Positions 4,071-46,734 of a stretch of DNA of 64,000 bases are shown here, piece after piece. The notes under the pieces were generated by a model. The model made no database searches, had not been told where the DNA came from, and saw only the letters and a program-made list of their open reading frames with translations. Position 1 is the first letter of the stretch; the number at the start of each line of letters is the position of its first letter. The position numbers and the translations under genes were made by a program. The stretch is from Candidatus Saccharibacteria bacterium UBA6824 (GTDB taxonomy: Bacteria; Patescibacteriota; Saccharimonadia; Saccharimonadales; UBA10212), in assembly GCA_002452155.1 (NCBI GenBank), contig DKEK01000006.1, positions 22,532-86,531 on the forward strand, read 5' to 3'.

Positions 4071-5369
4071 TTACAGAGTAGCTTGACCGTGCATGTAGGG
4101 CTGCAGGGCTTTGGGAACCCTTACCGTACCGTCCTCATTCTGATAATTTTCGATGATGGCCACCATTGTCCGTCCCATTGCGAAAGCCGTTGCGTCGTTA
4201 TTGTGTACAAAAACGTTTCCGTCGCTAGTCTTGGCACGAGTCCCCGTGCCTTCGGCCTGGAAGTCGCTGATGAAGTCCGCGGTGTGGGTCTCGCAGTATT
4301 TATTTTGGCCCGGTAGCCAGGCTTCTATATCTACGCCCCGGGCATTGGGAAAACCGATATCGGCCGTGCATTTATTTAACACGTGGTATGGCAGGTTCAG
4401 CTGCTGCATCAAATACTCCTGGATGGCAATCATAAAAAGGTGCTCATTCATACCATCTTCGGGCAGCGTGAAGCTTTCCATCTCTAATTTATCAAACTGG
4501 TGGAGGCGGATAATACCTTCCAAGTCCTTGCCGTACGTCCCAGCTTCGCGGCGGAAGGCTGTGGTGTAGCCGACGTAGCGTAGCGGCAGCTGCTGCCCGT
4601 CCAAAATTTCACCCATAAACATGGGCGCCAGAGTGTGTTCGGCGCTGGCGTTGAGCCACAAGTCTTCACCCTCCAGCTTGTAGGTCTGCTCCTCTTTATT
4701 GAGCCGGCCAGTGGCTTCGTAGACTTCGGTGCGGGCAACGGCCGGCGGCAGAGTTGGAGTAAAGGCTTCGGTTGATATATTTTTTAGACCGGCCTCACTT
4801 GCAACTGACTGCAGGATCTTTTCGTCTGTTAAAACCTTCAACGCGAATTGCACCAGCCCAAATTGCAGCTTTACAAGGTCGCCCAGCATATAAGCGAAAC
4901 GTGCGCCAGCAACCTTGGCCGCCCGCTGCTTGTCAATTAGGCCGCGGGGTTCGGCGATTTCCCAGTGCGTTTTGGGCTTGAAGTCAAACTCCGGCTTTTT
5001 GCCCCACTCTTTTACGACTACATTGTCGGCTTCGCTGGTACCGACCGGCACATCGTCTGCCGGCATATTGGGGACAGCTTTAAGTAGTTCTAAAAATTCC
5101 ACTTGCACCGGTTCTAGTTCCAGTTCAAGTTTCTTGAGTTTTTTCTTAAGACCCTGTCCTTTTACTTGATCTTCTTCCGATGGTTTTTGGTCCTTTGTCC
5201 GAGCCGCCAATTCGTTGCGCTCGGCACGGACAGCTTCAATTTCGGCCATCAAGTGGCGGCGATCCTCATCCAGCTGCAGCAGGTGTTTGATATTGACCCT
5301 GTAGCCTTTTTGGCCGGCCTTTTTTTCTACCTCCTCTGGATTTTCCCTGATAAAGCTGATGTCTAACAT
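4071..5369 (-). CDS. serS: seryl-tRNA synthetase
   Basis: 432-aa ORF with an N-terminal coiled-coil arm (MLDISFIRENPE...) and a class II catalytic core (TAFRREAG, GQNKYCETHT..). Confidence 0.95.
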   Translation of the reverse strand: MLDISFIRENPEEVEKKAGQKGYRVNIKHLLQLDEDRRHLMAEIEAVRAERNELAARTKDQKPSEEDQVKGQGLKKKLKKLELELEPVQVEFLELLKAVPNMPADDVPVGTSEADNVVVKEWGKKPEFDFKPKTHWEIAEPRGLIDKQRAAKVAGARFAYMLGDLVKLQFGLVQFALKVLTDEKILQSVASEAGLKNISTEAFTPTLPPAVARTEVYEATGRLNKEEQTYKLEGEDLWLNASAEHTLAPMFMGEILDGQQLPLRYVGYTTAFRREAGTYGKDLEGIIRLHQFDKLEMESFTLPEDGMNEHLFMIAIQEYLMQQLNLPYHVLNKCTADIGFPNARGVDIEAWLPGQNKYCETHTADFISDFQAEGTGTRAKTSDGNVFVHNNDATAFAMGRTMVAIIENYQNEDGTVRVPKALQPYMHGQATL

Positions 5370-5382
5370 ACAGTCATTATAA

Positions 5383-6144
5383 CTACTTTTTAGTTTGCAG
5401 AGCTTTTAGCGTAAGTTCGGTGCGGGCACGGGCATAAGCGCAGTGCTCACAGTCGGGATCTTCTTTGGGCATATCGCCTTCCAAAGTCTGTTTGATTTTT
5501 TCCAGAGTTGGCTCTACCCATTTGTCGCTACCTTTATATGGAAAAATGTTGGTGCGAAATTCTACTTTGTTAAAGAAGCCTTTGCCGCTTGAAATGCCAT
5601 TGGCGTAGACAAAATAGCCGGTGTCGCTGACTTTGTGGCCTTCGCCGCGCAGTAGCCATTGGTAAACTTCCATCTGGCGGCGGTAGCTATCGTGCCATTT
5701 GGACTCCTCCAGATCGGTAATCTCTTTATTTTTAGCAGTGGCTTTATAATCTACGACTACCAGTTTGTCGTCGGGTGTCACCCAAACATCGTCGACACCG
5801 CCGAAAATCAGCAGATTAGTCGCTTGGTGCAGATGCTGAACGCCTGTAAATACATGACGCCAGCGCTCTAGGTCCTTATGGGCAAACGGTTTGGCATCGA
5901 CCTTAAATTCAATCTGCCAGGGGTGTTGCTTGCCTTCTTTTCTATAGACATCAAACTCAGTTTTTAGCAGTGTATCTACGGCGCTATTGATTAGAAATGG
6001 TGGCGAGCTGGGCTGGTTAATTTTGAGGCGCTGGGCCAGCCAGAAACAGCGCGGACAGCGCACAAAATTCTCAATCCGGCTGCGACTTAATTTATAAACT
6101 TCTTTTTGGCCGGGCTTGTAAGCCGGCGATCTCTCGTATGCCAT
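5383..6144 (-). CDS. PD-(D/E)XK nuclease, Cas4/RecB-like with Fe-S cysteines
   Basis: 253 aa with an N-terminal CPRC and C-terminal CEHC cysteine pair bracketing a D..(VVVDYK) D/ExK core and a QMEVYQ (QxxxY) motif. No cas neighbours. Confidence 0.65.
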   Translation of the reverse strand: MAYERSPAYKPGQKEVYKLSRSRIENFVRCPRCFWLAQRLKINQPSSPPFLINSAVDTLLKTEFDVYRKEGKQHPWQIEFKVDAKPFAHKDLERWRHVFTGVQHLHQATNLLIFGGVDDVWVTPDDKLVVVDYKATAKNKEITDLEESKWHDSYRRQMEVYQWLLRGEGHKVSDTGYFVYANGISSGKGFFNKVEFRTNIFPYKGSDKWVEPTLEKIKQTLEGDMPKEDPDCEHCAYARARTELTLKALQTKK

Positions 6145-6168
6145 TAGACACCATTGTATCAGGCGGCT

Positions 6169-6264
6169 TTAGCCAGCCAGCTGAACCGCCAAGAACGATA
6201 CCAGGGCTAGAAATGCGGCGATGACTAAAATCAAAGGGCCGTATTTTTTAAGATTTGGTTGCAT
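6169..6264 (-). CDS. possible 31-aa single-pass membrane peptide (MQPNLKKYGPLILVIAAFLALVSFLAVQLAG)
   Basis: Hand-translated small ORF not in the track. TATACT lies 7 nt upstream of the ATG (leaderless pattern). Hydrophobic core. Confidence 0.3.
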   Translation of the reverse strand: MQPNLKKYGPLILVIAAFLALVSFLAVQLAG

Positions 6265-6344
6265 AAATTTTAGTATAGACCTTTTTCTTGAGCAAAGGGC
6301 GCGGGCAATAATGCCCGCGCCCAGCAAGTTTTGTGAGGTTTATA

Positions 6345-6653
6345 TTATCGTTTGACCCAGCGACCAACCAGGCCTACGACCAGGTAGCCGGCAGCGGCAT
6401 AGAATGCCATGGCGGCCAGGGCGACATAGTCAACCACCCAACCACGGCTGACCACATCGGTCGTGGTAAAGAAATTGCGCAGCGGTTCCAGCAACACCTG
6501 GGTATTGCTGTAGACCCAATGCACAAACGTAGCATCCGGATTCGCATTAAAGAACCGCAGCACCGCGCGGAGCAAGAGCAACAGTTCGGCCAGGCCGACG
6601 AACAAGTTGACCATGCCGGCAACTGATTGCTTGCTTACCTTGTAAAGATCCAT
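6345..6653 (-). CDS. YggT-like small integral membrane protein
   Basis: 102 aa, two hydrophobic segments, LRxxLRFF...P..FV motif resembling the YggT family. Strong SD (AAGGGAGGA) upstream. Confidence 0.5.
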   Translation of the reverse strand: MDLYKVSKQSVAGMVNLFVGLAELLLLLRAVLRFFNANPDATFVHWVYSNTQVLLEPLRNFFTTTDVVSRGWVVDYVALAAMAFYAAAGYLVVGLVGRWVKR

Positions 6654-6773
6654 AAGATCCTCCCTTAATTAGTAATAACTTCATAATATTCCTAGGCGTG
6701 CAAACTTACAATATAGATATCCACAGTTCGCCCCGTCCAGATTTTTATTTAAGTGCCGCCACTCGGGCTTTAA

Positions 6774-8672: not shown

Positions 8673-10196
8673 TCAGGCTTTAAGGTTGAGGCGTTTTATT
8701 AACCAGTCGCGCGGCAAGACCTGCAGGAACCAGCCGGCGCGCGGGCCGCTTTTTTCACCAATCAGAGCGCTGTAGAGCGTCTCGAACATAGCTTTTGGCT
8801 CCATACCGACTTCATCTTTTAGATCATAAAGGGTTTTATGGAACCACTCGCCGCCTGCATCCTTTGGCGCCCCTGCGATTTTTTCGGCTAATTTGGCTAG
8901 AAAACTCTTCTCTTGGTCCGAAAATTCGGACTGACTTATTCCCTTGCGTAGCTCGAATTTGACTTCGTCAGGCGCCCACTTGGCCAGCCATTGGTCGATG
9001 AAGATCAGCTCTTTTTTTATAATTGGTCGCTGTTTTTGCACCACTTGGCCGTGCTCGGTACGTTTAATAATCTCCAGAGTTTTATCGGGGTCTTTCAGGG
9101 AGGCTTGGTAGCTAGCCATCAAGTGGGAAAACGGTATGTTGCTGATGACCGAATCTAAGCCGCCAGTCGAGAGTTCCATCAGCTGGGCTTCGGCCTCGGT
9201 CTTATTTTGCTTGGACTGCAACTGGGCAAACTCGTCGATAAGCTGGGAGATGTGCATCGGATCGAAATAAAGTCGTTTTTGCGGTGCGTAACGCAACATG
9301 AAAAAGCGGATGATCTCCGGCGGCAGAATCCGCATGACTTCGGCGGCGGTTATGCCCGTGCCGGCACTAGCGCTCATCTTTTTGGTATCGCCGGTCCGGT
9401 TGACGAAATCATAAGCCACGGCTATTGGCGGCTTGGCCTTAAAGACCTGGTGCATTATAGCTTCGCCGGTATCAATGGAGCTGCCTTTCGTTGAATGGTC
9501 CCTACCCGAAGGCTCGAGACCAACCTTAAGCAGCCACCATCGGGCCGGCCAGTCGATCCGCCAATCAAGCTTTACCTGCCCTTGGTCGTAGCGTATGGAC
9601 TGTTCTAGGCCAGCTTTATCTTCGTAGTGCAGCGTCTGGGCGGTTTTGTCTAACTTTAAAAAATGACGCTTTTTCAAGTATTCATCTTCCATTATCTGAA
9701 TTGGCGACCAGGTGTCTTCAAGCTGTCGACCCGAAACTTCTTCCAAAATTTTACGCAAGTCGTCTGCCTGCTCCAGAGCCTTTTCTATGGCAGCCACAAA
9801 AAAACCTTCCCGGTATTTTTGGCGGCCACTCAGAAACTCCATTTTAATACCCAGGGCTTTGGCGCTGTCGCGAAGGTCTTTTAAGAAAAAATCGCCATAA
9901 CTGCCGCTGCCTTTGGGGGCTGGGATATCGGCCAGCGGCTGACCAAGGTATTTTTCGTACTGAGACGGTATGTTTTTAGGGATTTTTCTAAGCGCGTCAA
10001 AATCATCGACTACATGGACGTGACGCCCCTGCCGACCACGGCGCTCTACTTCCCTTAAAACCGCGTCAGCCGTGATAATCTCACGCAAGTGACCAACGTG
10101 GTAAGGCCCCGATGGCGCCGAACCGGACTCGATTATGACCTCACCTTCAGGCTGGCGGTTTATAAGTTGATCGACAACGTCATTAAGCCACTGCAT
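8673..10196 (-). CDS. lysK: class I lysyl-tRNA synthetase
   Basis: 507 aa with a HIGH-type motif (HVGHLRE) and a KMSKS-type motif (KMSAS). TATAAT lies 6 nt upstream of the ATG. Confidence 0.9.
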   Translation of the reverse strand: MQWLNDVVDQLINRQPEGEVIIESGSAPSGPYHVGHLREIITADAVLREVERRGRQGRHVHVVDDFDALRKIPKNIPSQYEKYLGQPLADIPAPKGSGSYGDFFLKDLRDSAKALGIKMEFLSGRQKYREGFFVAAIEKALEQADDLRKILEEVSGRQLEDTWSPIQIMEDEYLKKRHFLKLDKTAQTLHYEDKAGLEQSIRYDQGQVKLDWRIDWPARWWLLKVGLEPSGRDHSTKGSSIDTGEAIMHQVFKAKPPIAVAYDFVNRTGDTKKMSASAGTGITAAEVMRILPPEIIRFFMLRYAPQKRLYFDPMHISQLIDEFAQLQSKQNKTEAEAQLMELSTGGLDSVISNIPFSHLMASYQASLKDPDKTLEIIKRTEHGQVVQKQRPIIKKELIFIDQWLAKWAPDEVKFELRKGISQSEFSDQEKSFLAKLAEKIAGAPKDAGGEWFHKTLYDLKDEVGMEPKAMFETLYSALIGEKSGPRAGWFLQVLPRDWLIKRLNLKA

Positions 10197-32525: not shown

Positions 32526-35500
32526 CTAGTACTTGATTATGTAGTTCAGTGTGAGGTAAGCCCCGCTGTCGAGTGGCGAGCCGGTTGGTCCGATGGTGAC
32601 ATTGCTGTGCGTACCGCTGCCGTCGTTTCTCGCCACGGCGTTGTTCCCATCGCCACAACAGTCCACCGTATCGAGAAGATGATGAGACTTTGGGGTGCGA
32701 TTTGCAAGTGTGGCCCCCTCATTATTAGCAAGAGCATTGACGTCGGTGTTGGAAGAGTTGAGTCCAACCGGCGCTCGACCCCGCAGGTCGGGGAGATTAA
32801 AGGTGGTAGAACCATCACCCACCCCGTAGGTCGTGCCGACGACAGCGAAGAGAGAGGCATAGGTTGTTCGCGAGACGGCCGAACCATCGGCAAGCAGGTA
32901 ACCCGTCGGGGCGCTCGACCCGGCAAAAGGCACAACTGTTCCGGCCGGATTAATCACGGCGCTGCCGCTGAGATCACTCCAGGTACCGCTGGCACAGCCA
33001 CGGAAGGTACCGGAATTGGAGTTATAGTAGATGGCACCGTCGATACAGGTAGGATCACCAGAGGTGTTTTTATTGCCCAGCACCAGCAAAACCGGCGTCG
33101 AGCCGGCAGCACCCAGCGTAATCTTGGAATTGGTGGTGTCGACGCTAAACAAGCTGGCAGTCGAGGTGTTCTGAATCTGGAAAACAGCAGTATTATCAGT
33201 ACCCGGTTTGACAATTACGCCGCCCGTAGCACCCGCCGGGCTAAGGTTAATGTTGCCGGTGCCGGACTGAAGAAGAAGTGAACTGGCAGCTACGGTGGAG
33301 CCAATGGTGATGACGTTTTTGCCAGTGGAAGTAGCTGTAGCACCGATGTTAATGGTGTTGGTGTTGCCTGAAGCGACATTGCCGTTACCAATGTTTATGG
33401 TTTCGCCGGCGGTGGATCGGCCAAAAATTAGGCTGCCAGTGTTAGCCGTAGAGCCCACTGTTACAGTATTGACGTTGGTAGTGCCAATGGAGATAGTGCC
33501 CGAGGTGCCAGCACTCAGGCCAATCGCACTAGCACCAGTACCACCTTGAATGGTCGTGGCCGAAGTGCCGAGTAAATTGCCGATAGTTACATTGGTAGTT
33601 GAGGAAGCAGTGGCGTTGTTGCCAACGTTGACGGTTTGGGCAACAGCTCCGGTAGTAGTTCCAATCTGTACTGTGCCAGCTATGCCGCCGTTGCCTAGCT
33701 CAACTGAGGCGCCGGAGGTATTGACCAGCAGATAGTTGTTGCCGGCCAAGTTTTGAATCCGAAAAGCAGTAGTGGAATCGGCCGCATTTTGGGCCAAAAA
33801 TGTGCCACTGAATTTGTTATTACCGGTGAAGGTCTGCGGGCCGGTGCCGTTTAGCAGAGCGACATTACCAGAGAGTCTAGCATCAGCTACCGTACCAGAG
33901 CTTATGTTCGAGCCGTTGAGACTGGTTAGCGAAGCACCAGAGCCGGAGAAAGTGCCGGCAATGGCCGTGCCGGAGATGTTGAGGTTGCCGGTTTGAGCAG
34001 AACCTGGGGTAGAACCTTGTAATTGAACATAGCCACTACCGCCAATTGATGGAGCATAGCCAGAACAGACAGAGCCAGTCGTACAAATGATGCCGGTTTC
34101 GGCCGGCAGGGTGAGACTGAAGGTGCCCGCCCCAGGATTGGCAGCTTGGAGGGAAATATTACCAGAACCACCGGAGTTATAGAGGGTTAAGTTACCGGTA
34201 AGGGTTGAGGCTTTACCTAAAACTACCCTGGAGCCAGAGGTGTCCACCAGCAGCAGTTCATTGCCGGCCAGGTTTTGAATCCTAAAGGCAGTGGTGGAGT
34301 CGGCCGCGTTTTGGGCCAAAAATGTGCCACTGAATTTGTTATTACCGGTAAAGGTTTGCGGGCCGGTGCCGTTTAGCAGAGCGACATTACCAGATAGACG
34401 GGCGTCAGCTACCGTACCAGAGCTTATGTTGGAGCCGTTGAGACTGGTTAAGTTAACTCCGGAAACAGCTGGCAATTGGGTCGAGCCATTTAACTGAACA
34501 AGTTGCGAGGCCCCGTTAAAGCTGTTGCCCTGCAGTGTGACATTAGAGCTCAGGCGAATATCAGCCACTGTCCCCGAGCTTAGGTTGGAACCGTTTAAAT
34601 TAGTTAGGCTGGCGCCGTTGCCAGAGAATGTACCAGCGATAATAGTGCCCGAAACATTGATATTGCCAGTTTCCTGAGTTCCCGGCGTGCTAGCTTGCAA
34701 GCTGACGCAGTTGCCGAAGGCACAGCTGCCGGTACCGGGTGGACCGGCTGGACCGGTTGGACCGGTGGCGCCATTAGTACCATTTGTGCCAGCGGTACCC
34801 GTGGCGCCGGCTGGACCGGTGGCACCAGGGACACCGGTGGCGCCGGTTGCACCCTGAAGACCTCCCGCGCCAGTGGGACCGCTGCCGGTACAGCCGGTGG
34901 CTGTACAGACCAATACTTTATTAATAGTAAGGCCGGAGTTATTGAGGGAGCTGGTACCGCCGGAGGCAGCCAGACTGCCGCTGGCGGTGAAGCCGCCACT
35001 CAGTTGTAATACACCAGTGGTTGGTTCTGCGACCAGTTGGCCGAGTGTCAGGTTTTTGCCCTTGGCCAGGACGGTGTCGAGGTTTAGGGTCAGCTGGCCG
35101 CCTTTGGTGCTCAGGAGGGCGGAGTCGCTGGCTTGGGAACTTAGGTCGGTGGCCGGCGGTTTATTTTGGCGTAGCAGGCCGGAAAGGGCGAAGGCACCAG
35201 AGACTAAAGCTATGAGTGCCACAAAAGCCAGGCCTACAAAGATTGGCCGGTGGAAAAAAAGACCTGTTCGTCGGGGACCACTGCCCGAATCTTCGATGCC
35301 GCTGTTTACAGGGGCCGACGTAGCTTCCCCCAGCTCAGGAACGGCGGCTAGAGGCACCGAAGTTAATTGATTAATTAAGGAGGGGTGAAGCGGCGGTGTA
35401 CCTATAACCGTTGGCGGGCTAGCCGGCGGCTGCCAGGAGTTTTCCAGCTGCCGCCAGTCAGTGGGGCTGGGGTGGTTGTTGGCAAGGGGTGGTGCGGGAA

Positions 35501-35951
35501 ATGGCGTAGTCTCGAGTGATTTAATTTCTGAGGTTGTGGATGGCGCCCAAGACGGCGCTGCTGCCGGTTGAGCCGGGGGCGCCTCAGACAGAGGTTGGAC
35601 TGGAGATGACGGTGGTGCCTGAGGGGTGGTAAGGGTTGAGGGTGAGGTAATTGCTTGGGAGTTCTCAAAACCGGCCCACCCGGGTAAATCGTCTTCAGCC
35701 ACCCCAGTGCTACTATCGTAATTATCTATGGGCGCTTCCGCTATGGCCGGCGCCAAGGCCCGTAGGCCTAGTGAGCCTTTTAGCTCATCCTCTAATTGCG
35801 CTCCCAGCCGGGCCAGCTTATCGGGCGCAAGCTTGATCGCCTGGCTGGCTCTAAAGACGCGTTTTCGGCAACGCGCCGAACAGACCTTGGCATTGGGCCG
35901 GCCTTCAAACTGCTCATTGCAACCTGGACATAGCTTAGTTTTGGGAGCCAT
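32526..35951 (-). CDS. 1141-aa membrane-anchored fibre protein: N-terminal zinc ribbon, Pro-rich linker, TM helix, collagen-like Gly-X-Y tract, repeated fibre modules, phage tail-collar domain
   Basis: CPGC...CSARC near the N-terminus and the TM segment IFVGLAFVALIALVSGAFAL. GXY repeats are encoded at ~34731-34885. The tail-collar-type motif PFAGSSAPTGYLLADGS...TTFNLPDLRGRAPVG is encoded at 32763-32948. Confidence 0.85.
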   Translation of the reverse strand: MAPKTKLCPGCNEQFEGRPNAKVCSARCRKRVFRASQAIKLAPDKLARLGAQLEDELKGSLGLRALAPAIAEAPIDNYDSSTGVAEDDLPGWAGFENSQAITSPSTLTTPQAPPSSPVQPLSEAPPAQPAAAPSWAPSTTSEIKSLETTPFPAPPLANNHPSPTDWRQLENSWQPPASPPTVIGTPPLHPSLINQLTSVPLAAVPELGEATSAPVNSGIEDSGSGPRRTGLFFHRPIFVGLAFVALIALVSGAFALSGLLRQNKPPATDLSSQASDSALLSTKGGQLTLNLDTVLAKGKNLTLGQLVAEPTTGVLQLSGGFTASGSLAASGGTSSLNNSGLTINKVLVCTATGCTGSGPTGAGGLQGATGATGVPGATGPAGATGTAGTNGTNGATGPTGPAGPPGTGSCAFGNCVSLQASTPGTQETGNINVSGTIIAGTFSGNGASLTNLNGSNLSSGTVADIRLSSNVTLQGNSFNGASQLVQLNGSTQLPAVSGVNLTSLNGSNISSGTVADARLSGNVALLNGTGPQTFTGNNKFSGTFLAQNAADSTTAFRIQNLAGNELLLVDTSGSRVVLGKASTLTGNLTLYNSGGSGNISLQAANPGAGTFSLTLPAETGIICTTGSVCSGYAPSIGGSGYVQLQGSTPGSAQTGNLNISGTAIAGTFSGSGASLTSLNGSNISSGTVADARLSGNVALLNGTGPQTFTGNNKFSGTFLAQNAADSTTAFRIQNLAGNNYLLVNTSGASVELGNGGIAGTVQIGTTTGAVAQTVNVGNNATASSTTNVTIGNLLGTSATTIQGGTGASAIGLSAGTSGTISIGTTNVNTVTVGSTANTGSLIFGRSTAGETINIGNGNVASGNTNTINIGATATSTGKNVITIGSTVAASSLLLQSGTGNINLSPAGATGGVIVKPGTDNTAVFQIQNTSTASLFSVDTTNSKITLGAAGSTPVLLVLGNKNTSGDPTCIDGAIYYNSNSGTFRGCASGTWSDLSGSAVINPAGTVVPFAGSSAPTGYLLADGSAVSRTTYASLFAVVGTTYGVGDGSTTFNLPDLRGRAPVGLNSSNTDVNALANNEGATLANRTPKSHHLLDTVDCCGDGNNAVARNDGSGTHSNVTIGPTGSPLDSGAYLTLNYIIKY
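33741..33928 (-). repeat. internal repeat copy A of the fibre gene
   Basis: ~190 bp nearly identical to 34263-34450 (period 522 bp). Encodes ...NGSNISSGTVADARLSGNVALLNGTGPQTFTGNNKFSGTFLAQNAADSTTAFRIQNLAGN. Confidence 0.9.
34263..34450 (-). repeat. internal repeat copy B of the fibre gene
   Basis: See 33741-33928. Confidence 0.9.
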
Positions 35952-36000: not shown

Positions 36001-36020
36001 TGTGAACATCTTTAAGTATT

Positions 36021-36071
36021 AAGCATAAGCGTCCCGTTGTCAAGAGTTACGGAACGTTTTTGTCCCGCTTT
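36021..36071 (+). repeat. 51-bp direct repeat copy 1, containing a plus-strand terminator-like hairpin + T5
   Basis: Identical to 36214-36264 (period 193 bp). Hairpin CGTCCCGT/ACGGAACG at 36030-36056, followed by TTTTT. Confidence 0.85.
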
Positions 36072-36213
36072 GGCAGGCACCTTAGTTGGTTGGCTTGATT
36101 GCACCGGATCTGCGCCCTCATTTTGGGCCAGCTTAGCGGCTCCCTAGGGCCGCCCGCTTCCTTGCTCTTTGACAGACGGGTTTTCAAGTAACCTGTAGGG
36201 AATAAGACAGTAT

Positions 36214-36264
36214 AAGCATAAGCGTCCCGTTGTCAAGAGTTACGGAACGTTTTTGTCCCGCTTT
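36214..36264 (+). repeat. 51-bp direct repeat copy 2, containing a plus-strand terminator-like hairpin + T5
   Basis: Identical to 36021-36071. Confidence 0.85.
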
Positions 36265-40511: not shown

Positions 40512-40550
40512 GCCCCCAACTGTATTGCCAAAAGCAATGCAGTTGGGGGC
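40512..40550 (+). terminator. long-stem terminator hairpin
   Basis: 17-bp stem GCCCCCAACTGTATTGC / GCAATGCAGTTGGGGGC (one G-T pair), loop CAAAA, followed by a T-rich tail. Confidence 0.6.
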
Positions 40551-40584: not shown

Positions 40585-40719
40585 TCAAGAGCAGCCGGTT
40601 GTGGAACCGCAGGAAGTACAGACATAGCAGCTGCCGGCTCTTTGGGTTTGGTTACCGCAGTTGTAGCATAGCGGCGCAGCGTCATCTAGGCGGATAGTAT
40701 CCTCCTTTGGCTCAGGTGG
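40585..40719 (-). pseudogene. orphan duplicate of the nrdJ 3' end (last 44 codons + stop)
   Basis: Encodes PPEPKEDTIRLDDAAPLCYNCGNQTQRAGSCYVCTSCGSTTGCS*, identical to the C-terminus of the intact nrdJ (43867-44001). The frame is closed directly upstream by TGA (40720-40722) and has no start codon. Confidence 0.85.
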
Positions 40720-40721
40720 TC

Positions 40722-41432
40722 AGAGGACGTTCCTCTATAGGTGTTAATCTATGCTAGTTTAATTCAATAATTAGCTAACTGGTATTTAAATTCGCTTAGC
40801 ATGTTTTTTTGCTCTTCGTAATCGGCTACGAATTTTAGGTAATCTGCTCTGGAAGCAAATAGTTTTAAAGCCATCGAGGTATTGAGCCACTGCGGCTCGT
40901 GTCCGGCCAGGTAATAATTGAGGCTTGAGAAGCGATAGTTTCGCCATAGTCTAGGGTTAAGATGTATGTAACGGGTGATGTGTTGCAGGTATGAGTCGTT
41001 GTCGAGCCTGACGGCTTTATAGCGGCTTTCGAACAAAGGCCCGCTGCGCTGGTATTTAAGGTTGAAATAACGGCTGTAGCTGGTCATTAAACTGCGCATT
41101 AGCTTCTCCAGATAAGGCACGTCTTTTTGATAAACCAGCAGGTGCAGATGGTTGGACATAAGACAGTAAGCCAGCAATTGCACCCTGCCCCGATAGTGCG
41201 GGTATGGCTCGCCGGTTTTACTGAGTGCTGATTTGTTAGACAGGTATCTTTCAAACAAAGCCAAAAAGTACTTATAGTCGGCTGCTTCGAGAAATATCTT
41301 TTGTTGGTTAGCTCCCCTAGTGTAAATGTGATAGTACGAGTCGGGAGCTTGTTCTTTATTAACATTGCGCGATGGCATGGAGCAATTATACTGAAACTAG
41401 CACCAAATTACACCTATAGAGGAACGTCCTCT
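40722..41432. mobile_element. RAYT-type unit: Y1 (HUH) transposase gene flanked by perfect 22-bp inverted, hairpin-forming repeats
   Basis: AGAGGACGTTCCTCTATAGGTG (40722-40743) is the exact reverse complement of 41411-41432. Each end contains the hairpin AGAGGA-CGT-TCCTCT. Confidence 0.75.
40764..41378 (-). CDS. REP-associated tyrosine (IS200/IS605-like Y1, HUH) transposase
   Basis: 204 aa with YHIYTRG, the HUH motif in CLMSNHLHLLV, and the catalytic Tyr context RYIHLNP. Confidence 0.85.
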   Translation of the reverse strand: MPSRNVNKEQAPDSYYHIYTRGANQQKIFLEAADYKYFLALFERYLSNKSALSKTGEPYPHYRGRVQLLAYCLMSNHLHLLVYQKDVPYLEKLMRSLMTSYSRYFNLKYQRSGPLFESRYKAVRLDNDSYLQHITRYIHLNPRLWRNYRFSSLNYYLAGHEPQWLNTSMALKLFASRADYLKFVADYEEQKNMLSEFKYQLANY

Positions 41433-41462
41433 AAATTCCTTAAACGTCCTCTAAATTCCTTA
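41423..41462. repeat. 2 x 20-bp tandem repeat AACGTCCTCTAAATTCCTTA overlapping the right inverted repeat
   Basis: Two exact adjacent copies. The first 10 nt of each unit equal the terminal 10 nt of the inverted repeat. Confidence 0.9.
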
Positions 41463-41488
41463 AATTATTTCATCTGTTAGTTCGTTGG

Positions 41489-43660
41489 TCATACGGTTGA
41501 TGAATCCACGATCAGGCCGGTCGCCGCAAGCGCGGTCAGCAGCGACGCCAGGGCTGCGTTCCCTCCGCGCGATCCTGTGACGGTCTGCTGCGTTGCTGTC
41601 GCGTGGTTGTAAAAGCCGAGATTCGCGCCAAGATGCCGAAGGTCGAGGGTAACGTGGAGCGAGTCGTCCGTCTTGAGCACGTCGGCGGCACTGCGGTAGA
41701 GGATCGTGTCGAGGGAACCCGCGCCACTACCCCATCGGATCGCACCGTCAGCGCGAAGCAGCCAGCGGGCGAAGCCGTCGCCAGTAACGAGTCCCTGAAG
41801 CTGTGTGGAGGTTGAGAGAGCGCCAGTGGCCGAGATGAGTGCCCCTGACCCCAAAGAGAAGACACCACTGACCGGATTGAGCGTGAACATACCCACCCCG
41901 GCATTGCGAATCGTAATTATGCCGTCGTGACTAAAATTGACAAGATTGTAAGTTCCAGTGCTCGACTGGAACTGCACTATATCAGAGGTTTGCCCCCCGG
42001 TTTTTTCACGGAATATGACCGGCACCACATCTGCGGTGGGCACGACAATTTGGGGCGTCGAAGGTGACAAGAGCACTGACGACAGCCGGGGATCAGTGGT
42101 TCCCACCGCTGCAACCCATCCGGTCTTGCCCGAACCGGTTTCCTTTACGTAGAGCGATGTCGATGCACCGCCATCGGTGCGACTGTACGCGGAGCCAACG
42201 GGGGCATACAGTACGCCTTCAGGCGAGCCACTACCAATCGCCTCCCGCACAAACCCAGCAGGCGGGGCCATCCCAAGACCGGCGCCACTTTCAACCTCGC
42301 GGTAGTCACGAATTACGCAGTTCAGGAAAACGTCGGGGTCGGCAAACGCGCCTGATCCCACCAGCATCCCCAATGTGACACGGCTATTGTTCGCCTGTTC
42401 GATTACCCCTGAGATCACGCACCCGTCGATTGTGTGACCGCGCGCAACATTGTCAGGGGATCCATCGGCGTTGATTTTTGCGAAAGCGACCCCCTCGGTG
42501 AAAGCCGCACCCGCCGTGCCGATAATATTTTTCAGGTTGACGGTGATCCTGATGTTCCTGTAAACGAGCGCGGTCGTACTGGTGAAAGACACAAGGATGG
42601 GGGCTGCTCCTTGGATACTCCCATCGCTCTCACGGTCATAGTAGTTCAGGGTGATGTTTTCAACCGAGTCGGTGTAACCAACTTTCGAGCTGTTCGACTG
42701 GTTCTTCGCTCTGACAGTAACCTCGTGATTCTTGGCTCCGTACACGAAGTAGGCACGACCTGGGCTGTCGGCATCTACCATCGCCACTAGGTCATCCCCG
42801 GAGTTCTGACAACTCAGCGGATAGAAAGTAAGACTTGTCTTGATGCGCGCATTGATTTGCCGACTCTTATAACTGTCAGGGTCTGAAATGGCCTTTTGGA
42901 ACGCGACGCCAGCACGACCGCCGATTAGTTCCACGTCGAGGTTGATGCCCACACAACCCTGGTAGAACATGAGCAGGTCACGACCCACCTGGCCGTTGCC
43001 GCTGGAGACATCCTGGGACGTGAACTTGAGCCTACCAATGTCGATGTTGTTGCAGGCGCTGAAGCCAAAAAGCACGCCGACCTGTGATCCCGTGAAGGTG
43101 TAGGTGTCGGCAATGCTCGCACCTGACCCCCAGATTTTGATGCCGCGAAGGTTTGTGAAGAGATAGAGAGTAGCGAGACCTGACACCTTGTAAGTGCCTG
43201 CGTCGGGAAAGAACAAGGTGCCACCACCGGAAGCCTGGAGGGCTGCGCACGCCGCAGTTATCGCAGTCGTATCGTCAGCAACGTTATTACCGACCGCACC
43301 GTAAGCTTTGACATTAAAGACTTGGGAGCCTTTGTCTAAGAAAGTGCCGGCATTAAAGGTTTTAGTTCCGGTAATAGTTTCAGTACCAGCCAGGTGAACC
43401 ACAGCCGAATCAGTCGCTTTGGCGGCTAGGTCTGAGGTTAAGTTAGTGATTTTAGATTCAGAGATGACTGAAACATCGGCGTCGGTGATATTAAGAGCAG
43501 CTAGTTTTGACTTAACAATAGCAGCCGTGGACGCTACCTTGGCATTGGTAATAATTCCGTCTTTGAGCGTGCCGTCTGGGTTATGTTCTTGGTTTAGGAA
43601 GTCATTGAGGATGTCTCCCCAGGTGCCATCATCAGAGCCGGACTTTGGTAGTCTAGACAT
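41489..43660 (-). CDS. right-handed parallel beta-helix (tailspike-like) protein, family copy 3
   Basis: 723 aa with N-terminus MSRLPKSGSDDGTWGDILNDFLNQEHNPDG and the entry motif NVKAYGAVGNNVADDTTAIT. The C-terminal motif is LGFYNHATATQQTVTGSRGGNAALASLLTALAATGLIVD. GC-rich. Confidence 0.9.
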   Translation of the reverse strand: MSRLPKSGSDDGTWGDILNDFLNQEHNPDGTLKDGIITNAKVASTAAIVKSKLAALNITDADVSVISESKITNLTSDLAAKATDSAVVHLAGTETITGTKTFNAGTFLDKGSQVFNVKAYGAVGNNVADDTTAITAACAALQASGGGTLFFPDAGTYKVSGLATLYLFTNLRGIKIWGSGASIADTYTFTGSQVGVLFGFSACNNIDIGRLKFTSQDVSSGNGQVGRDLLMFYQGCVGINLDVELIGGRAGVAFQKAISDPDSYKSRQINARIKTSLTFYPLSCQNSGDDLVAMVDADSPGRAYFVYGAKNHEVTVRAKNQSNSSKVGYTDSVENITLNYYDRESDGSIQGAAPILVSFTSTTALVYRNIRITVNLKNIIGTAGAAFTEGVAFAKINADGSPDNVARGHTIDGCVISGVIEQANNSRVTLGMLVGSGAFADPDVFLNCVIRDYREVESGAGLGMAPPAGFVREAIGSGSPEGVLYAPVGSAYSRTDGGASTSLYVKETGSGKTGWVAAVGTTDPRLSSVLLSPSTPQIVVPTADVVPVIFREKTGGQTSDIVQFQSSTGTYNLVNFSHDGIITIRNAGVGMFTLNPVSGVFSLGSGALISATGALSTSTQLQGLVTGDGFARWLLRADGAIRWGSGAGSLDTILYRSAADVLKTDDSLHVTLDLRHLGANLGFYNHATATQQTVTGSRGGNAALASLLTALAATGLIVDSSTV

Positions 43661-43802
43661 AGTCTAGACCTCCAGCTGCAGGGCTGTTTAAGCTCTCCCT
43701 CTGAAGGTTTTTCTGGGTGGGTAAGAGTGTGTGGGTGTGTGGGATTTTAGACATAGCTGTTGGTGTTTACCCTCCTCATGGTGCTTGAGGTTATTGTAGC
43801 AT
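43661..43802 (-). promoter_or_regulatory. promoter (TTGCAG-16-TGCTACAAT, -10 at 43793-43801) and ~125-nt leader of beta-helix copy 3
   Basis: The extended -10 and the 61-nt leader block are shared with copy 2. The AAAAACCTTCAGAG block is shared with copy 1. SD GGAGG lies 10 nt before the ATG. Confidence 0.65.
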
Positions 43803-43866
43803 AAGGACCAAGAACTGCAATTAATTTTATAGCAAATTTTGACCATTTTAAATCTAGGATAGCGGA

Positions 43867-46734
43867 TCAACTGCAGCCAGTGGTGCTGCCACAGGAAGTG
43901 CAGACGTAGCACGAGCCGGCTCTTTGGGTTTGGTTACCGCAGTTGTAGCATAGCGGCGCAGCGTCATCTAGGCGGATAGTATCCTCCTTTGGCTCAGGCG
44001 GGCTGGTAGTCTCCTGCTGGAGATGTTTGAGGTCAGCCGTGCTGGCGGCTACAGTCGTGACGGCTTCGGTGATGGCGGCTTCGGCCTGGGCTACGGTCTC
44101 AAGAGCTTGTTCAACAATTACATCCTGGGGGGCCGCCGCTTCGGATAGTAAGCTGGTTTGGCCCGGCGGCTGGTCGTCTATGCTGGCCAGGCCGACTTCC
44201 AGGCGTTCGTCGAAGCTCAAGTAGGTTTTACCAAGCCGGCGGAAAATATAGTCAATCAGCGAACTGGCAGTCCGGATTTCCGGGTCATCGGTAATGCCGG
44301 CCGGCGCGAAGCTAGTGTTGGCAAATACCCGAACATAACTTTTTAGCGGTACGCCGTATTGCAGGCCATAACTAACGGCTATACCGAAGGCGTCCATGAC
44401 GCCCCGCAGGGTCGAACCCATTTTAGAACTGCTGATGAACAACTCACCGGGCGTACCGTCGTCGTATTCACCAACAATCACGTAGCCCCGGGTGCCGGCG
44501 ACTGTAAATTTAAAGTTTTTGGCGTTGCGGATTCGCGGCAGGTCGCGACGGACCGCTGTATGCGGCACCAGGCTTTCGTTAAATGTAGCAACGAGGGCTG
44601 CCGGACTGGCGTTGCCGGCGGTGGCCACGGACGCCGGTTCTTCTTTAGCGCCGTCTTTTTTGGCCATCGAAAGCGGCTGGGCAACTTTGCAGTTATCGCG
44701 GTAAATAGCCACCGCTTTGAGGCCCATCTTCCAAGCGTCCATGTGCAACTGTTCGACATCCTCAACACTAACGTCCTCGGGCATGTTGACGGTTTTGGAA
44801 ATGGCGCCGGAAATAAACGGCTGGACGGCACTCATCATTTTGACGTGGCCCAAGTAGTGGATGGCGTTATCGCCCATGCTGCAGGCAAAGACCGGTTCGT
44901 GATCTTTTTTCAGATGCGGTGCGTGAAGAATGGTCTTTTCAACGTCGATGTAATTGACGATGTCATCGATCTGGGACTTGTTGTAGCCCAGCGCCTTAAG
45001 CGCCCGCGGCACGGTTTGGTTGACGATGTGCATGGTGCCGCCACCGACCAGTTTTTTGACCTTAACCAGCCCTAAGTCCGGTTCAATACCGGTGGTATCA
45101 CAGTCCATCATTAGGCCAATGGTGCCGGTTGGCGCCAGCACAGTAGCTTGGGAGTTGCGCATGCCGTGCAGCTCGGACAGCTCGACAGCCTCGTCCCAGG
45201 AGCTAGCAGCGGCGGAGAGTAGTTCTTCGGCCGCCAGCGACGGATCAATTTTTTTGACTTCATCGCGGTGCATCTTGAGCACTTTATTCATCCCCTCCAC
45301 GTCTTTGTCATAGCCAGCAAAAGGGCCGACCCGCTTGGCAATTTTGGCGCTGGTAGCGTAAGCGTGGCCGGTCATGAGGGCCGTGATGGCCGCCGCTTGG
45401 GCCCGGCCCTCGTCGCCGTCATAAGGCAGGCCTTGAGCCATTAGCAGCGCGCCAAGATTGGCATAACCGAGTCCCAGCTCGCGATAAGCTCGGGCGGTTT
45501 TAGCGATGCTTTTGGTCGGGTACTCGCTATAGCCGACCAGAATTTCCTGGGCCGTAAACATCAGCTCGACAGTGTGGCGGAAGGCCTCAATATCGAAACT
45601 AAAGTCGTCGTTTAGGTATTTGAGCAAGTTAATCGAAGCCAAGTTGCAAGCCGAATTATCGAGGTGCATATATTCACTGCAGGGGTTAGAAGCATTGATA
45701 CGGCCAGCGTTGGGCGCCGTGTGCCAGCGGTTGATAGTGGTATCAAACTGCATGCCGGGATCGGCGCACTCCCAGGCGGCTTCGGCGATTTGGCGGAAAA
45801 TATCCCGGGCCTTAACCCGCGCTACGGCCTTGCCGGTGGTAACAGCGCTCAGATTCCAGTCGTCGTCGTTTTGGACAGCCTGCATAAAATCATCAGTTAC
45901 ACGCACCGAATTGTTGGCGTTTTGGTACTGGACCGAGAAAGAATCCTTGCCGTCAAGCGTCATGTCAAAACCGGCCGTTTCCAGCACCCGGGTCTTGCGC
46001 TCTTCTATAGCCTTGCACCAAATAAACTCCTGCACGTCCGGGTGGCTGGCGTTTAAGATGACCATTTTGGCCGCCCGGCGAGTTTTGCCGCCGCTTTTAA
46101 TAGCGCCGGCCGATGAATCGGCGCCGCGCATAAATGACAGCGGCCCGGAAGCCGTGCCGGCACTCTTGCCCAGCGGCTCGCGGGAGCTGCGTAGGCTGCT
46201 GACATTGATACCCGACCCACTGCCGCCCTTAAAGATCATGCCCTCTTCGTAGTACCAGTTAAGGATGGCCGGCATGGTGTCTTCAACCGCCAAAATAAAG
46301 CAGGCGCTGGCCTGCTGGGAACGGCCGTGGGCGCCAATATTAAACCAGACCGGGCTGTTAAAGGCCGCCCGCTGGGTGGCTAAGATGTACTTAAGTTCTT
46401 CGCGGAAATCCTCGGCCTCGGCGGGGCTGACAAAATAGCCACCTTGGACGCCTTCACGGGTAATGGTATCGACAACCCGGTTGATAAGTTGTTTGAGGGA
46501 TCGTTCGCGACCCTGGGTATCGGGAGTACCGGTAAAATATTTTTGGGCGACGATGTTGATGGCGTTAAGGCTCCAGCCGTCGGGAAAATCGACATCTTTT
46601 TGTTCAAATACCGGCTTGCCGGTGCCCGGATTAGTGATTAATGAATCGCGTTTGGTCCATGATAGGCTGTCGTAGGCCTTAGTTTTTGGCTTCGTGAAAA
46701 GCCGACGAACCGACAACGTGGCTGCTTGTGCCAT
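43867..46734 (-). CDS. nrdJ: adenosylcobalamin-dependent (class II) ribonucleotide reductase with C-terminal Cys4 zinc-ribbon tail
   Basis: Class II RNR similarity (NPCSEY..., TGIEPD). The start is set at MAQAATLSV (46734), preceded by AAGGAGAGGG. The track ORF extends to 46848. Confidence 0.9.
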   Translation of the reverse strand: MAQAATLSVRRLFTKPKTKAYDSLSWTKRDSLITNPGTGKPVFEQKDVDFPDGWSLNAINIVAQKYFTGTPDTQGRERSLKQLINRVVDTITREGVQGGYFVSPAEAEDFREELKYILATQRAAFNSPVWFNIGAHGRSQQASACFILAVEDTMPAILNWYYEEGMIFKGGSGSGINVSSLRSSREPLGKSAGTASGPLSFMRGADSSAGAIKSGGKTRRAAKMVILNASHPDVQEFIWCKAIEERKTRVLETAGFDMTLDGKDSFSVQYQNANNSVRVTDDFMQAVQNDDDWNLSAVTTGKAVARVKARDIFRQIAEAAWECADPGMQFDTTINRWHTAPNAGRINASNPCSEYMHLDNSACNLASINLLKYLNDDFSFDIEAFRHTVELMFTAQEILVGYSEYPTKSIAKTARAYRELGLGYANLGALLMAQGLPYDGDEGRAQAAAITALMTGHAYATSAKIAKRVGPFAGYDKDVEGMNKVLKMHRDEVKKIDPSLAAEELLSAAASSWDEAVELSELHGMRNSQATVLAPTGTIGLMMDCDTTGIEPDLGLVKVKKLVGGGTMHIVNQTVPRALKALGYNKSQIDDIVNYIDVEKTILHAPHLKKDHEPVFACSMGDNAIHYLGHVKMMSAVQPFISGAISKTVNMPEDVSVEDVEQLHMDAWKMGLKAVAIYRDNCKVAQPLSMAKKDGAKEEPASVATAGNASPAALVATFNESLVPHTAVRRDLPRIRNAKNFKFTVAGTRGYVIVGEYDDGTPGELFISSSKMGSTLRGVMDAFGIAVSYGLQYGVPLKSYVRVFANTSFAPAGITDDPEIRTASSLIDYIFRRLGKTYLSFDERLEVGLASIDDQPPGQTSLLSEAAAPQDVIVEQALETVAQAEAAITEAVTTVAASTADLKHLQQETTSPPEPKEDTIRLDDAAPLCYNCGNQTQRAGSCYVCTSCGSTTGCS

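Follow-up and report, generated by a model that had tools for sequence, protein, structure and literature searches.

The stretch of DNA considered here, 64,000 nucleotides of contig DKEK01000006.1 from Candidatus Saccharibacteria bacterium UBA6824 (hereafter the window), contains a 711-bp unit in which one gene for a Y1 HUH transposase lies between inverted repeats that end in small hairpins. This unit is best explained, with a probability of roughly 0.7, as a TIRtron: a class-2 gene resembling those of the REP-associated tyrosine transposases (RAYTs), framed by hairpin-ended terminal inverted repeats (TIRs) of about 39 nt and belonging to a large clade that extends across the Patescibacteria. 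Under the same explanation, such units probably act as rare, single-copy elements resembling insertion sequences (IS), which enter their sites without target duplication and leave solo repeats and relics behind, rather than as the center of a genome-wide REP family. In terms of published classifications, the sequence comparison suggests that the clade best fits a new member of the TIRtron/TIRYT type (Group 1 RAYT, subclass 2.1), although one defining feature of that type, a helix-turn-helix, was not found in the window protein. The unit also occupies one end of a 3,282-bp cassette that is polymorphic within a single strain.

The unit and its enzyme

The unit is read on the minus strand, such that its downstream end has the lower coordinates. 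Its parts in the window are as follows.

40722-41432: Y1 unit, 711 bp, with a stuttered upstream edge that reaches 41462
40722-40760, minus strand: downstream TIR, with the hairpin AGAGGA-CGT-TCCTCT (40722-40736) outermost; this hairpin's outer edge is the putative end of the unit
40764-41378, minus strand: gene for the Y1 HUH transposase, RAYT-like class 2, 204 aa, with NHLH at residues 76-79, Y137 in RYIHLNP and SS at 151-152
41385-41390, minus strand: TATAAT, a -10-like box 6 nt upstream of the ATG, read from the sequence
41394-41432, minus strand: upstream TIR, with the hairpin at its outer end (41418-41432)
41423-41462, minus strand: exact tandem duplication of 20 nt (41423-41442 and 41443-41462), 10 nt of each copy belonging to the hairpin and 10 nt lying outside it

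Direct reading of the sequence gives a perfect inverted repeat of 22 nt, AGAGGACGTTCCTCTATAGGTG at 40722-40743 and its exact reverse complement at 41411-41432, and a repeat search of the window extends this pair to 39-nt arms with 87% identity (40722-40760 and 41394-41432). Folded as single-stranded DNA, each arm forms a 6-bp stem with a 3-nt loop (z -1.9 to -2.8). The 15-nt hairpin core occurs exactly twice in the window even when up to 2 mismatches are allowed, compared to 0.04 occurrences expected by chance, and none of 100 shuffles reaches two. The inverted-repeat score of the flanks is 24, while shuffled flanks reach at most 9. The unit is compositionally foreign in its surroundings, with a G+C fraction of 0.437 and a third-position G+C fraction of 0.53, compared to third-position values of 0.60-0.64 in neighboring genes.

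The protein encoded between these repeats matches the Pfam family Y1_Tnp (PF01797) at 37.4 bits, above the cut-off of 23, and a Pfam search with E values up to 1 found nothing besides this family. Its score against the NCBIfam equivalog for REP-associated enzymes (NF047646, REP_Tyr_transpos) is 41.4 bits, below the cut-off of 80. Residues N76-H77-L78-H79, Y137 and S151-S152 are invariant in an alignment of 32 relatives with 58-79% identity. An AlphaFold model built on the family alignment has a mean pLDDT of 86, with lower confidence in the C-terminal helices (168-203). The top Foldseek match of this model is 4ER8, E. coli TnpAREP with a bound REP hairpin (E 7e-6), followed by the TnpA proteins of ISDra2, IS608 and IS200, and all of the top 30 matches are Y1 transposases. 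A single-sequence search of the PDB with the Y1 protein gave no match, and a profile search gave marginal matches to ISDra2 TnpA only (E 0.8), in which the HUH motif and the tyrosine align to the DHVH motif and the catalytic-tyrosine region of that enzyme. Judged by its sequence and its predicted fold, the protein is thus an intact Y1 HUH enzyme. It is encoded in this exact form at one place in the assembly.

These results agree with an original prediction made from the letters of the DNA, which had described perfect 22-bp repeats bearing 6-bp-stem, 3-nt-loop hairpins, the absence of a third hairpin copy from the window, an exact 20-bp duplication at the right end, an AT-richer composition than that of the neighbors, and an intact 204-aa Y1 transposase with its HUH motif and its tyrosine in RYIHLNP.

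The TATAAT box has an identical placement in some relatives (L092 and L096; loci of the comparison are given by such numbers), and it may be a promoter element, as suggested by its sequence and position. A consensus promoter scan, which demands a -35 box, did not call it. A search for Rfam-type RNA families over the region found none at E values up to 1.

A family of units with selected repeats

The window protein has 1,575 relatives in public protein collections, nearly all of about 204 aa. Nearly all of those with a named host belong to Patescibacteria or Saccharibacteria, and some carry the JGI label "REP element-mobilizing transposase RayT". The flanking DNA was compared at 80 homologous loci from genome assemblies and at others found by exact-protein look-up. 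An inverted repeat that beats all 40 shuffles of the same flanks is present at 55 of the 83 testable loci, and this count is a lower bound because several of the failures are start-codon miscalls that had scored well in an earlier test. In 32 of 45 arms, 5 bp or more pair perfectly around a loop of at most 4 nt, compared to a mean of 3.4 and a maximum of 8 in shuffles. The inner stems take 23 distinct forms, for example AGAGGAC/GTCCTCT, AAAGGTC/GACCTTT, TGAGGTG/CACCTCA and GGGGAGGGT/ACCCTCCCC. With so many different stems, pairing has therefore been preserved by compensatory change on both sides.

Conservation of the repeat can also be compared with that of the gene it flanks. A scan of metagenome contigs, which returned copies from genomes other than the source, found the 19-mer AGAGGACGTTCCTCTATAG in 21 stretches, of which 5 are repeat pairs around Y1 genes. 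These 5 pairs represent 3 distinct units, since L111 repeats L092 and L107 repeats L103, and the Y1 genes inside the shared pairs are merely 62-77% identical at the protein level. Every match to the 19-mer lies in about 40 nt of common repeat, and the similarity ends exactly at the outer edge of the hairpin, a boundary that is sharp in 24 related ends. Between units at 59-78% protein identity, the nonsynonymous distance (dN) is 0.13-0.30 while the synonymous distance (dS) is saturated, meaning that the gene is under strong purifying selection. The repeat stays identical while synonymous sites saturate, and it is therefore under direct selection as well. By these sequence comparisons, selection on the hairpin-bearing inverted repeats extends to the family as a whole.

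The same evidence bears on whether the unit might be an inert relic whose hairpins matter only as transcription signals for the neighboring genes. The hairpins do lie between co-directional genes, their stems are weak, and the gene is single copy. However, the reading frame is intact with all catalytic residues, the family dN/dS is far below 1, and the repeat is identical across lineages whose synonymous sites are saturated. In addition, a terminator scan did not report the TIR hairpins, and no T-run follows them in the sequence. A relic of this kind is the least credible of the explanations considered.

The hairpin edge is also the site of recurrent small duplications, or stutters, of which the 20-nt duplication in the window, identical in all contigs of the strain, is one case. 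An exact duplication of at least 9 nt across the outer hairpin boundary, within 45 nt, is present at 7 of 24 distinct AGAGGAC-type ends, compared to a rate of 0.6% at control positions in the same loci (binomial p ~7e-11). Examples include three copies of GCTTAAG and two copies each of GGACAAAGAGG, GTTCTAGAG and GGATTAAGA. The recurrence indicates that the hairpin edge is prone to local duplication, possibly through repeated cutting and rejoining by the enzyme or through polymerase slippage at the hairpin. The 20-nt duplication had originally been seen as a footprint of cleavage and rejoining, which is plausible; what the comparison establishes is the recurrence of such duplications at hairpin edges.

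Several observations point to mobility of these units. The three closest relatives on long contigs lie in three unrelated neighborhoods, and any neighbor in common with the window is found at only 8 of 101 loci; ancestral synteny with nrdJ or ileS was rejected on this basis. Intergenic DNA of other metagenome contigs contains about 11 distinct solo copies of the repeat. L096 is a deletion relic, because its repeat precedes just six codons of the gene (MPSRNV). An extra copy of the repeat within 6 kb on either side occurs in 5 of 55 relatives and is absent from the window; extra copies or clusters near the gene are found at L068, L057, L094 and L124.

The ends of the element can be placed by comparing filled and empty sites. 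At L050 (CAYOPE010000001.1, 4942-6634), filled and empty versions of one site lie adjacent to each other, beside two paralogous genes. A 133-nt repeat and a 46-nt element are contiguous at 4942-5121, and in the second version they are interrupted by a Y1 unit at 5916-6588. The empty site is GGTCAATAAAAA (GGTCAA/TAAAAA), and the filled site reads GGTCAA, 21 nt, the first repeat, the rest of the unit, the second repeat, and (T)AAAAA. A second comparison is offered by L012, where the end of one direct repeat (R1) that precedes the unit can be set against the same sequence without the unit (the end of R2). In both of these relatives of the window unit, the upstream end of the element lies about 21 nt outside the upstream hairpin, its downstream end coincides with the outer limit of the downstream repeat, and the target site is not duplicated. 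Across the sequences compared, the upstream end seems to lie some 10-21 nt past its hairpin.

Some of the solo repeats have distinctive surroundings. At L094:8820-9180, L106:2487-2560 and L109 (reverse strand, ~182-247), solo repeats of the window type are arrayed or in tandem with hairpins of other subfamilies (AGAGTCCGTCCTCT-AACAGAT, AGAGGACTGTCCTCT-AACGGATG, GGGGACGGTTCC and others). The array in L094 lies upstream of a distant (26%) Y1_Tnp gene, a REP-cluster-like arrangement that is missing from the window. The solo repeats at L093:3539-3700, L095, L104 and L108 adjoin sequence that, by eye, resembles tRNA or other structured RNA. At L091:1074-1740 and L110:1010-1700, the repeat is followed inward by non-Y1 open reading frames of 201 and 167 aa, neither of which has a Pfam match. 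In L110, the hairpin also recurs as a direct repeat 678 nt away. L091 and L110 may be units with a replaced gene.

Relation to known Y1 elements

TIRtrons, also termed TIRYT, are RAYT-like genes with long flanking TIRs, many of which contain GGGGWSAS and some of which are partly self-complementary (Di Nocera et al. 2013, PMC3733652). They have been equated with TnpAY1 subclass 2.1 (Quentin et al. 2018, PMC6006769), and the same set forms Group 1, the most IS-like group of RAYTs (Bertels et al. 2017, PMC5581495). Subclass 2.1 is characterized by the motifs NHVH or NH[YF]H, W[EQ] or FQ, YIELNP or Y[IV]HLNP, and an SS tail (PMC6006769, Table 1), as well as by a median length of 238 aa, a C-terminal helix-turn-helix and a finding of "no REP" (PMC6006769). 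Classical RAYTs (subclasses 2.2, 2.4 and 2.5), in contrast, have flanking REPs with a GT[AG]G foot that form abundant dispersed families, and the transposases of the IS200/IS605 family (subclass 1.1) have a Y---Q motif, about 150 aa, no inverted repeats and multiple copies (PMC6006769).

The window unit resembles the TIRtrons in that a RAYT-like Y1 gene is framed by long TIRs instead of GTAG REPs, in its low copy number, and in having few or moderately few extra copies of the repeat. At the level of motifs, as distinct from subclass profiles, its protein also resembles subclass 2.1, with NHLH (NHFH in the family), FE in LFESRYK, YIHLNP and the invariant S151-S152. The GGGGWSAS motif can be followed outward from the clade. 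Clade relatives have AGGGTCAG, which agrees at 7 of 8 positions, and GGGGACGT, which agrees at 6 of 8; proteobacterial plasmid relatives have flanking TIRs with GGGGACAG (8 of 8) or AGGGTCAG, fitting the motif. One clade member, L098, shares AATAAAGGGGAC with the repeat of a TIRtron on a P. aeruginosa plasmid.

The clade differs from subclass 2.1 as described in several respects. At 204 aa, the window protein is shorter than the median of 238 aa, and an additional 12-17 aa are inserted between its first helix and its second strand. The GGGGWSAS-like motif is here the 5' arm and loop of a tight, co-varying hairpin of 5-9 bp, and stutter duplications recur at the edge of this hairpin. Patescibacteria hosts do not occur in the text of Quentin et al. 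(PMC6006769), among the taxa listed in PMC3733652, or in Group 1 of PMC5581495.

A classical domesticated RAYT, or REPtron, whose hairpins would come from a genome-wide REP or REPIN family, is one alternative; the system used for comparison is E. coli TnpAREP (a RAYT of subclass 2.2) with its REP and BIME sequences (PMC3333891, PMC3479197). Its likeness to the window unit includes the best fold match, 4ER8, the inverted hairpin-bearing flanks, the single-copy and strongly conserved gene, and the Y---NP motif. The RayT labels on relatives, the solo repeats in other contigs, and the extra copies or clusters at L068, L057, L094 and L124 also speak for it. However, the hairpins of the window unit have no GT[AG]G foot; their inner side is ATAGGTG (CACCTAT on the other strand), and their outer side is unrelated flank. 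The NCBIfam score is about half of its cut-off (41 against 80 bits), no third copy was found in 64 kb at 2 mismatches, and extra copies are confined to the 5 of 55 relatives mentioned above. Genomic contexts vary even among close relatives, unlike those of vertically kept RAYTs, and the unit, foreign in composition, is part of a cassette that was acquired. A REPtron is therefore improbable, and the classical REP-associated arrangement named in the original prediction was not recovered.

That prediction had also called the protein IS200/IS605-type, which did not hold up either. An ordinary insertion sequence of the IS200 type, with TnpA only, would account for the Y1 HUH fold and Pfam family, the size of about 0.7 kb, the hairpins at both ends, the lack of target-site duplication (tested in relatives), and the asymmetry of the ends, which lie about 20 nt beyond the hairpin on one side and near the hairpin on the other, as in the left and right ends of IS608. 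The unit differs from IS608 and ISDra2 in its class-2 tyrosine motif YIHLNP (Y---NP rather than Y---Q), in its NHLH motif where D-H-[VI]-H would be expected, in a length of 204 aa with a 60-aa C-terminal tail compared to about 150 aa, in its single copy where multiple near-identical copies would be expected, and in the lack of tnpB. Its ends are true inverted repeats, which means that each strand has the same kind of 3' end, and its profile match to ISDra2 is the marginal one already given. The tyrosine motif and the end structure largely refute this alternative, which is even less probable than a REPtron.

For a TIRtron of this kind, single-strand "peel and paste" transposition offers a natural model by analogy. 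The enzyme would most likely bind the hairpins in single-stranded DNA and would cut and rejoin that strand beside them, as IS608 and ISDra2 TnpA and E. coli TnpAREP suggest. On the downstream side, the element would stop at the outer edge of its hairpin.

Several points weigh against the TIRtron assignment and the mechanism attached to it. The C-terminal helix-turn-helix of subclass 2.1 (DnaA_C-, HTH_23- or HTH_28-like) was undetected in the window protein, while a Legionella relative gives Bac_DnaA_C and helix-turn-helix matches. The window repeat, GAGGACGT, agrees with GGGGWSAS at only 5 of 8 positions. No significant inverted repeat was found at 28 of the 83 testable loci, and the TIR hairpin is thermodynamically weak to modest (about -4 kcal/mol). 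The count of dispersed copies in the source genome covers 64 kb, and the cleavage sites are those suggested by the sequence boundaries alone.

A polymorphic cassette that ends in the unit

The unit lies at the downstream end of a longer segment bounded by two copies of the 3' end of nrdJ. The features of this segment and its edges are as follows.

40720-44001, minus strand: polymorphic cassette, 3,282 bp, in the order replacement nrdJ 3' end, 206-nt spacer, 723-aa gene, Y1 unit
43867-44001, minus strand: last 135 nt of the intact nrdJ (R-right); its 84-nt core is identical to that of R-left, and its "X" tail differs at 13 positions, all synonymous
41489-43660, minus strand: cargo gene, 723 aa, tail-spike-like or pectate-lyase-like
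40585-40719, minus strand: orphan copy of the nrdJ 3' end, its last 135 nt (R-left), with a "Y" tail as in the empty site, followed by the native terminator
40688-40706, minus strand: TIR-like hairpin in the nrdJ core, AGGAGGAT-ACT-ATCCGCCT and then AGATG, present again at 43970-43988
40512-40550, minus strand: G+C-rich 17-bp hairpin that directly follows the orphan nrdJ copy and is taken to be the native terminator of nrdJ (reported on the plus strand by the scan; the structure is palindromic)

The two nrdJ copies, 135 nt with 90% identity, lie 3,282 nt apart and encode the same 44 aa. All of their 14 differences are synonymous. One is found at the upstream edge and the other 13 fall in the final 48 nt, on either side of the 84-nt identical core. 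This means that one of the two tails comes from a diverged yet functional nrdJ. The left repeat of the unit had been placed 2 nt after the end of the nrdJ homology and exactly at the cassette junction, and the coordinates of the two nrdJ copies (40585-40719 and 43867-44001) confirm both points. The unit is the last part of the 3,282-bp segment, which was probably acquired from a relative that had diverged.

This segment exists in more than one state in the same strain. The integrated state is represented by the window and L001-L003. A comparison of the junction with and without the unit, which the original prediction had proposed as a check, recovered the exact empty site at L146, where nrdJ, the core, the native tail, the terminator and the neighboring genes follow one another without the 723-aa gene or the Y1 unit, at 99.96% identity to the window over 2,655 nt. 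The reciprocal junction is found in two circular-type contigs from two samples, L004 and L005, of 3,282+79 and 3,282+77 nt with exact terminal overlaps. These contigs break at different points inside the 723-aa gene, have the order unit, hybrid nrdJ fragment, start of the 723-aa gene, and match the predicted recombinant circle with 1 and 0 mismatches. Taken together, the cassette matches a Campbell-type insert that brings a replacement 3' end for its target gene, with direct repeats of this 3' end, an empty site, and a reciprocal junction of either a circle or a tandem.

The host chromosome is present in the samples of L004 and L005, and in one of them its contig ends inside the repeat core. 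The junction itself is proven, and it is compatible with a free circle as well as with a tandem duplication; unequal sister exchange would yield the same empty and duplicated products. The segment would have become polymorphic through recombination inside the 84-nt identical nrdJ core, whether RecA-type or driven by the Y1 enzyme.

One other apparent empty site was rejected. In the annotation of L113 (GCA_036771655.1, DAIPGW010000016.1), the Y1 unit and the greater part of the 723-aa gene seem to be missing because the nrdJ repeat caused a scaffolding artefact, in which 10 N at 1155-1164 join window position 40668 to 43570. The NrdJ 90% cluster contains this strain only, and a JGI-length NrdR look-up for close strains returned no record.

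The cargo of the cassette is the 723-aa protein, the first ~80 residues of which (65-79% identity) are common to dozens of Saccharibacteria proteins of varied lengths and C-terminal domains. Such a modular N-terminus is the pattern expected of receptor-binding proteins, as judged by sequence. A search for close full-length homologues found none, and hence no donor lineage emerged by this route. The cassette has no DNA match among phage records, the repeat has none among viral contigs, and PHROGs has none for the Y1 protein; viral contigs contain two distant Y1 relatives only, and plasmids likewise contain only distant ones (26-40%). A virus or plasmid origin of the cassette was rejected, as no link to known phages or plasmids was found.

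Further features of the region concern this gene and its neighbors. Across the start codon of the 723-aa gene, at 43646-43667, the palindrome GTCTAGAC occurs twice, 3 nt apart (GTCTAGAC-TAT-GTCTAGAC on the coding strand), and this pair looks like an operator or translation-control element. A few kb from the cassette, the open reading frame at 32526-35951 encodes another surface protein resembling phage tail fibres, a 1,141-aa collagen/tail-collar protein. Its gene has an internal 222-nt direct repeat (90%; 33708-33928 and 34230-34450), and public annotations disagree on the length of the protein (943 vs 1,141 aa). The spacer between the L21 and collagen/collar genes contains a 57-nt direct repeat (98%; 36015-36071 and 36209-36264).

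It is possible, if rather unlikely, that the Y1 enzyme and its downstream hairpin end made the cassette, and perhaps still move it, which would add a role to the TIRtron described above without replacing that explanation. The enzyme would have cut at the outer edge of the downstream hairpin and joined this end to a site upstream in the donor nrdJ, maybe the TIR-like core hairpin. The product would be a circle of nrdJ tail, cargo gene and unit. To enter a cassette-free chromosome, this circle could recombine homologously in the nrdJ core, or HUH-type site-specific strand transfer could take place at the hairpin that both share. No dedicated tyrosine or serine integrase was found in the cassette, whose two open reading frames with family matches are the tail-spike-like gene and the Y1 gene; the latter is its sole enzyme gene. 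The novel joint and the outer edge of the downstream hairpin are 0-5 nt apart, and the integrated, empty and reciprocal-junction states of an excising or integrating element have all been recovered.

The same geometry, independent of the window, is found at L012 (JBAXJI010000026.1, a Candidatus Saccharibacteria metagenome-assembled genome, 1453-4636), where the Y1 gene (2765-3379) lies between direct repeats of 1,223 nt with 99.5% identity, each containing two genes. One copy starts at the downstream repeat of the unit and the other stops 21 nt before the upstream repeat, and their few differences are clustered in the last 30 nt, as in the window. This layout is the one expected if a circle of repeat and unit recombines into a unit-free chromosome. 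At L124 (JAWVHH010000620.1), the 3' end of the Y1 gene and the downstream repeat occur at 6456-6658 and again 2.4 kb away at 9082-9284, with 97% identity over 204 nt. Two unrelated genes lie between these copies, and the same contig has scattered repeats of 40-100 nt at 650-762, 981-1083, 3101-3175 and 3892-3931.

The TIR-like hairpin of the nrdJ core, with its AGATG, lies 13 nt inside the nrdJ repeat, in the part that is identical between copies, and is also present in the empty site. In 128 kb, the corresponding pattern has 5 matches (the 2 TIRs, the 2 nrdJ-core copies and 1 other) compared to a shuffle mean of 0.65, for a pattern that was written after the nrdJ-core site had been seen. The hairpin is a candidate recognition site, and as such a lead only.

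A causal role of the Y1 enzyme in the joint is nonetheless an inference, and several facts count against it. A crossover in 84 nt of perfect identity makes ordinary homologous recombination or unequal sister exchange fully sufficient, and the distribution of the variant at position 2 (CCA/CCG) is that expected from a crossover inside the core, not from a precise insertion at the boundary. The L012 repeat has no TIR-like site, the bases 5' of the repeat starts have no similarity to the two inferred insertion targets, and the geometry is seen in only 2 of ~85 loci.

A bolder version, and a doubtful one, is that the Y1 TIRtron could serve as the engine for a minimal integrative cassette of two genes, carried in an ultra-small Patescibacteria genome. 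Equally speculative is the step by which joining the downstream hairpin to an upstream surrogate site would package the tail-spike-like gene and a piece of nrdJ in a 3.3-kb circle. The same low expectation applies to the remaining step, in which the circle would enter cassette-free chromosomes at the 3' end of nrdJ and the stutters would be by-products of the same cutting and rejoining. Parallels to such an engine exist among other HUH families. IS91 and ISCR elements undergo one-ended rolling-circle transposition, and relaxases catalyze recombination or integration at oriT-like sites; their enzymes, Y2 transposases and relaxases, belong to families different from Y1. If the engine operated, its likeness to IS91, ISCR and relaxase systems would be the use of one true end and a surrogate site to mobilize adjacent DNA as a circle, with an HUH enzyme acting at a hairpin-like site common to element and target.

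As a gene with its repeats, the unit is of an ordinary, already described type. To this poorly understood type, it adds a set of examples that is very large (~1,575 homologues), compact and clean, together with direct evidence of selection on a tight hairpin inside the repeat (covariation, and identical repeats at saturated dS) and pairs of filled and empty sites by which the element ends are defined. Its setting is of greater interest, as all three states of the cassette can be recovered from one strain's public metagenomes; the parts worth following are the polymorphic cassette, the joint at the hairpin edge, and the recurrent stutters. If the Y1 enzyme does make the joint, genome-reduced episymbionts would have a route for swapping host-attachment genes, and the enigmatic Group 1 RAYTs would gain a testable function. 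If it is the engine of the cassette, genes for surface proteins would move between strains without an integrase.

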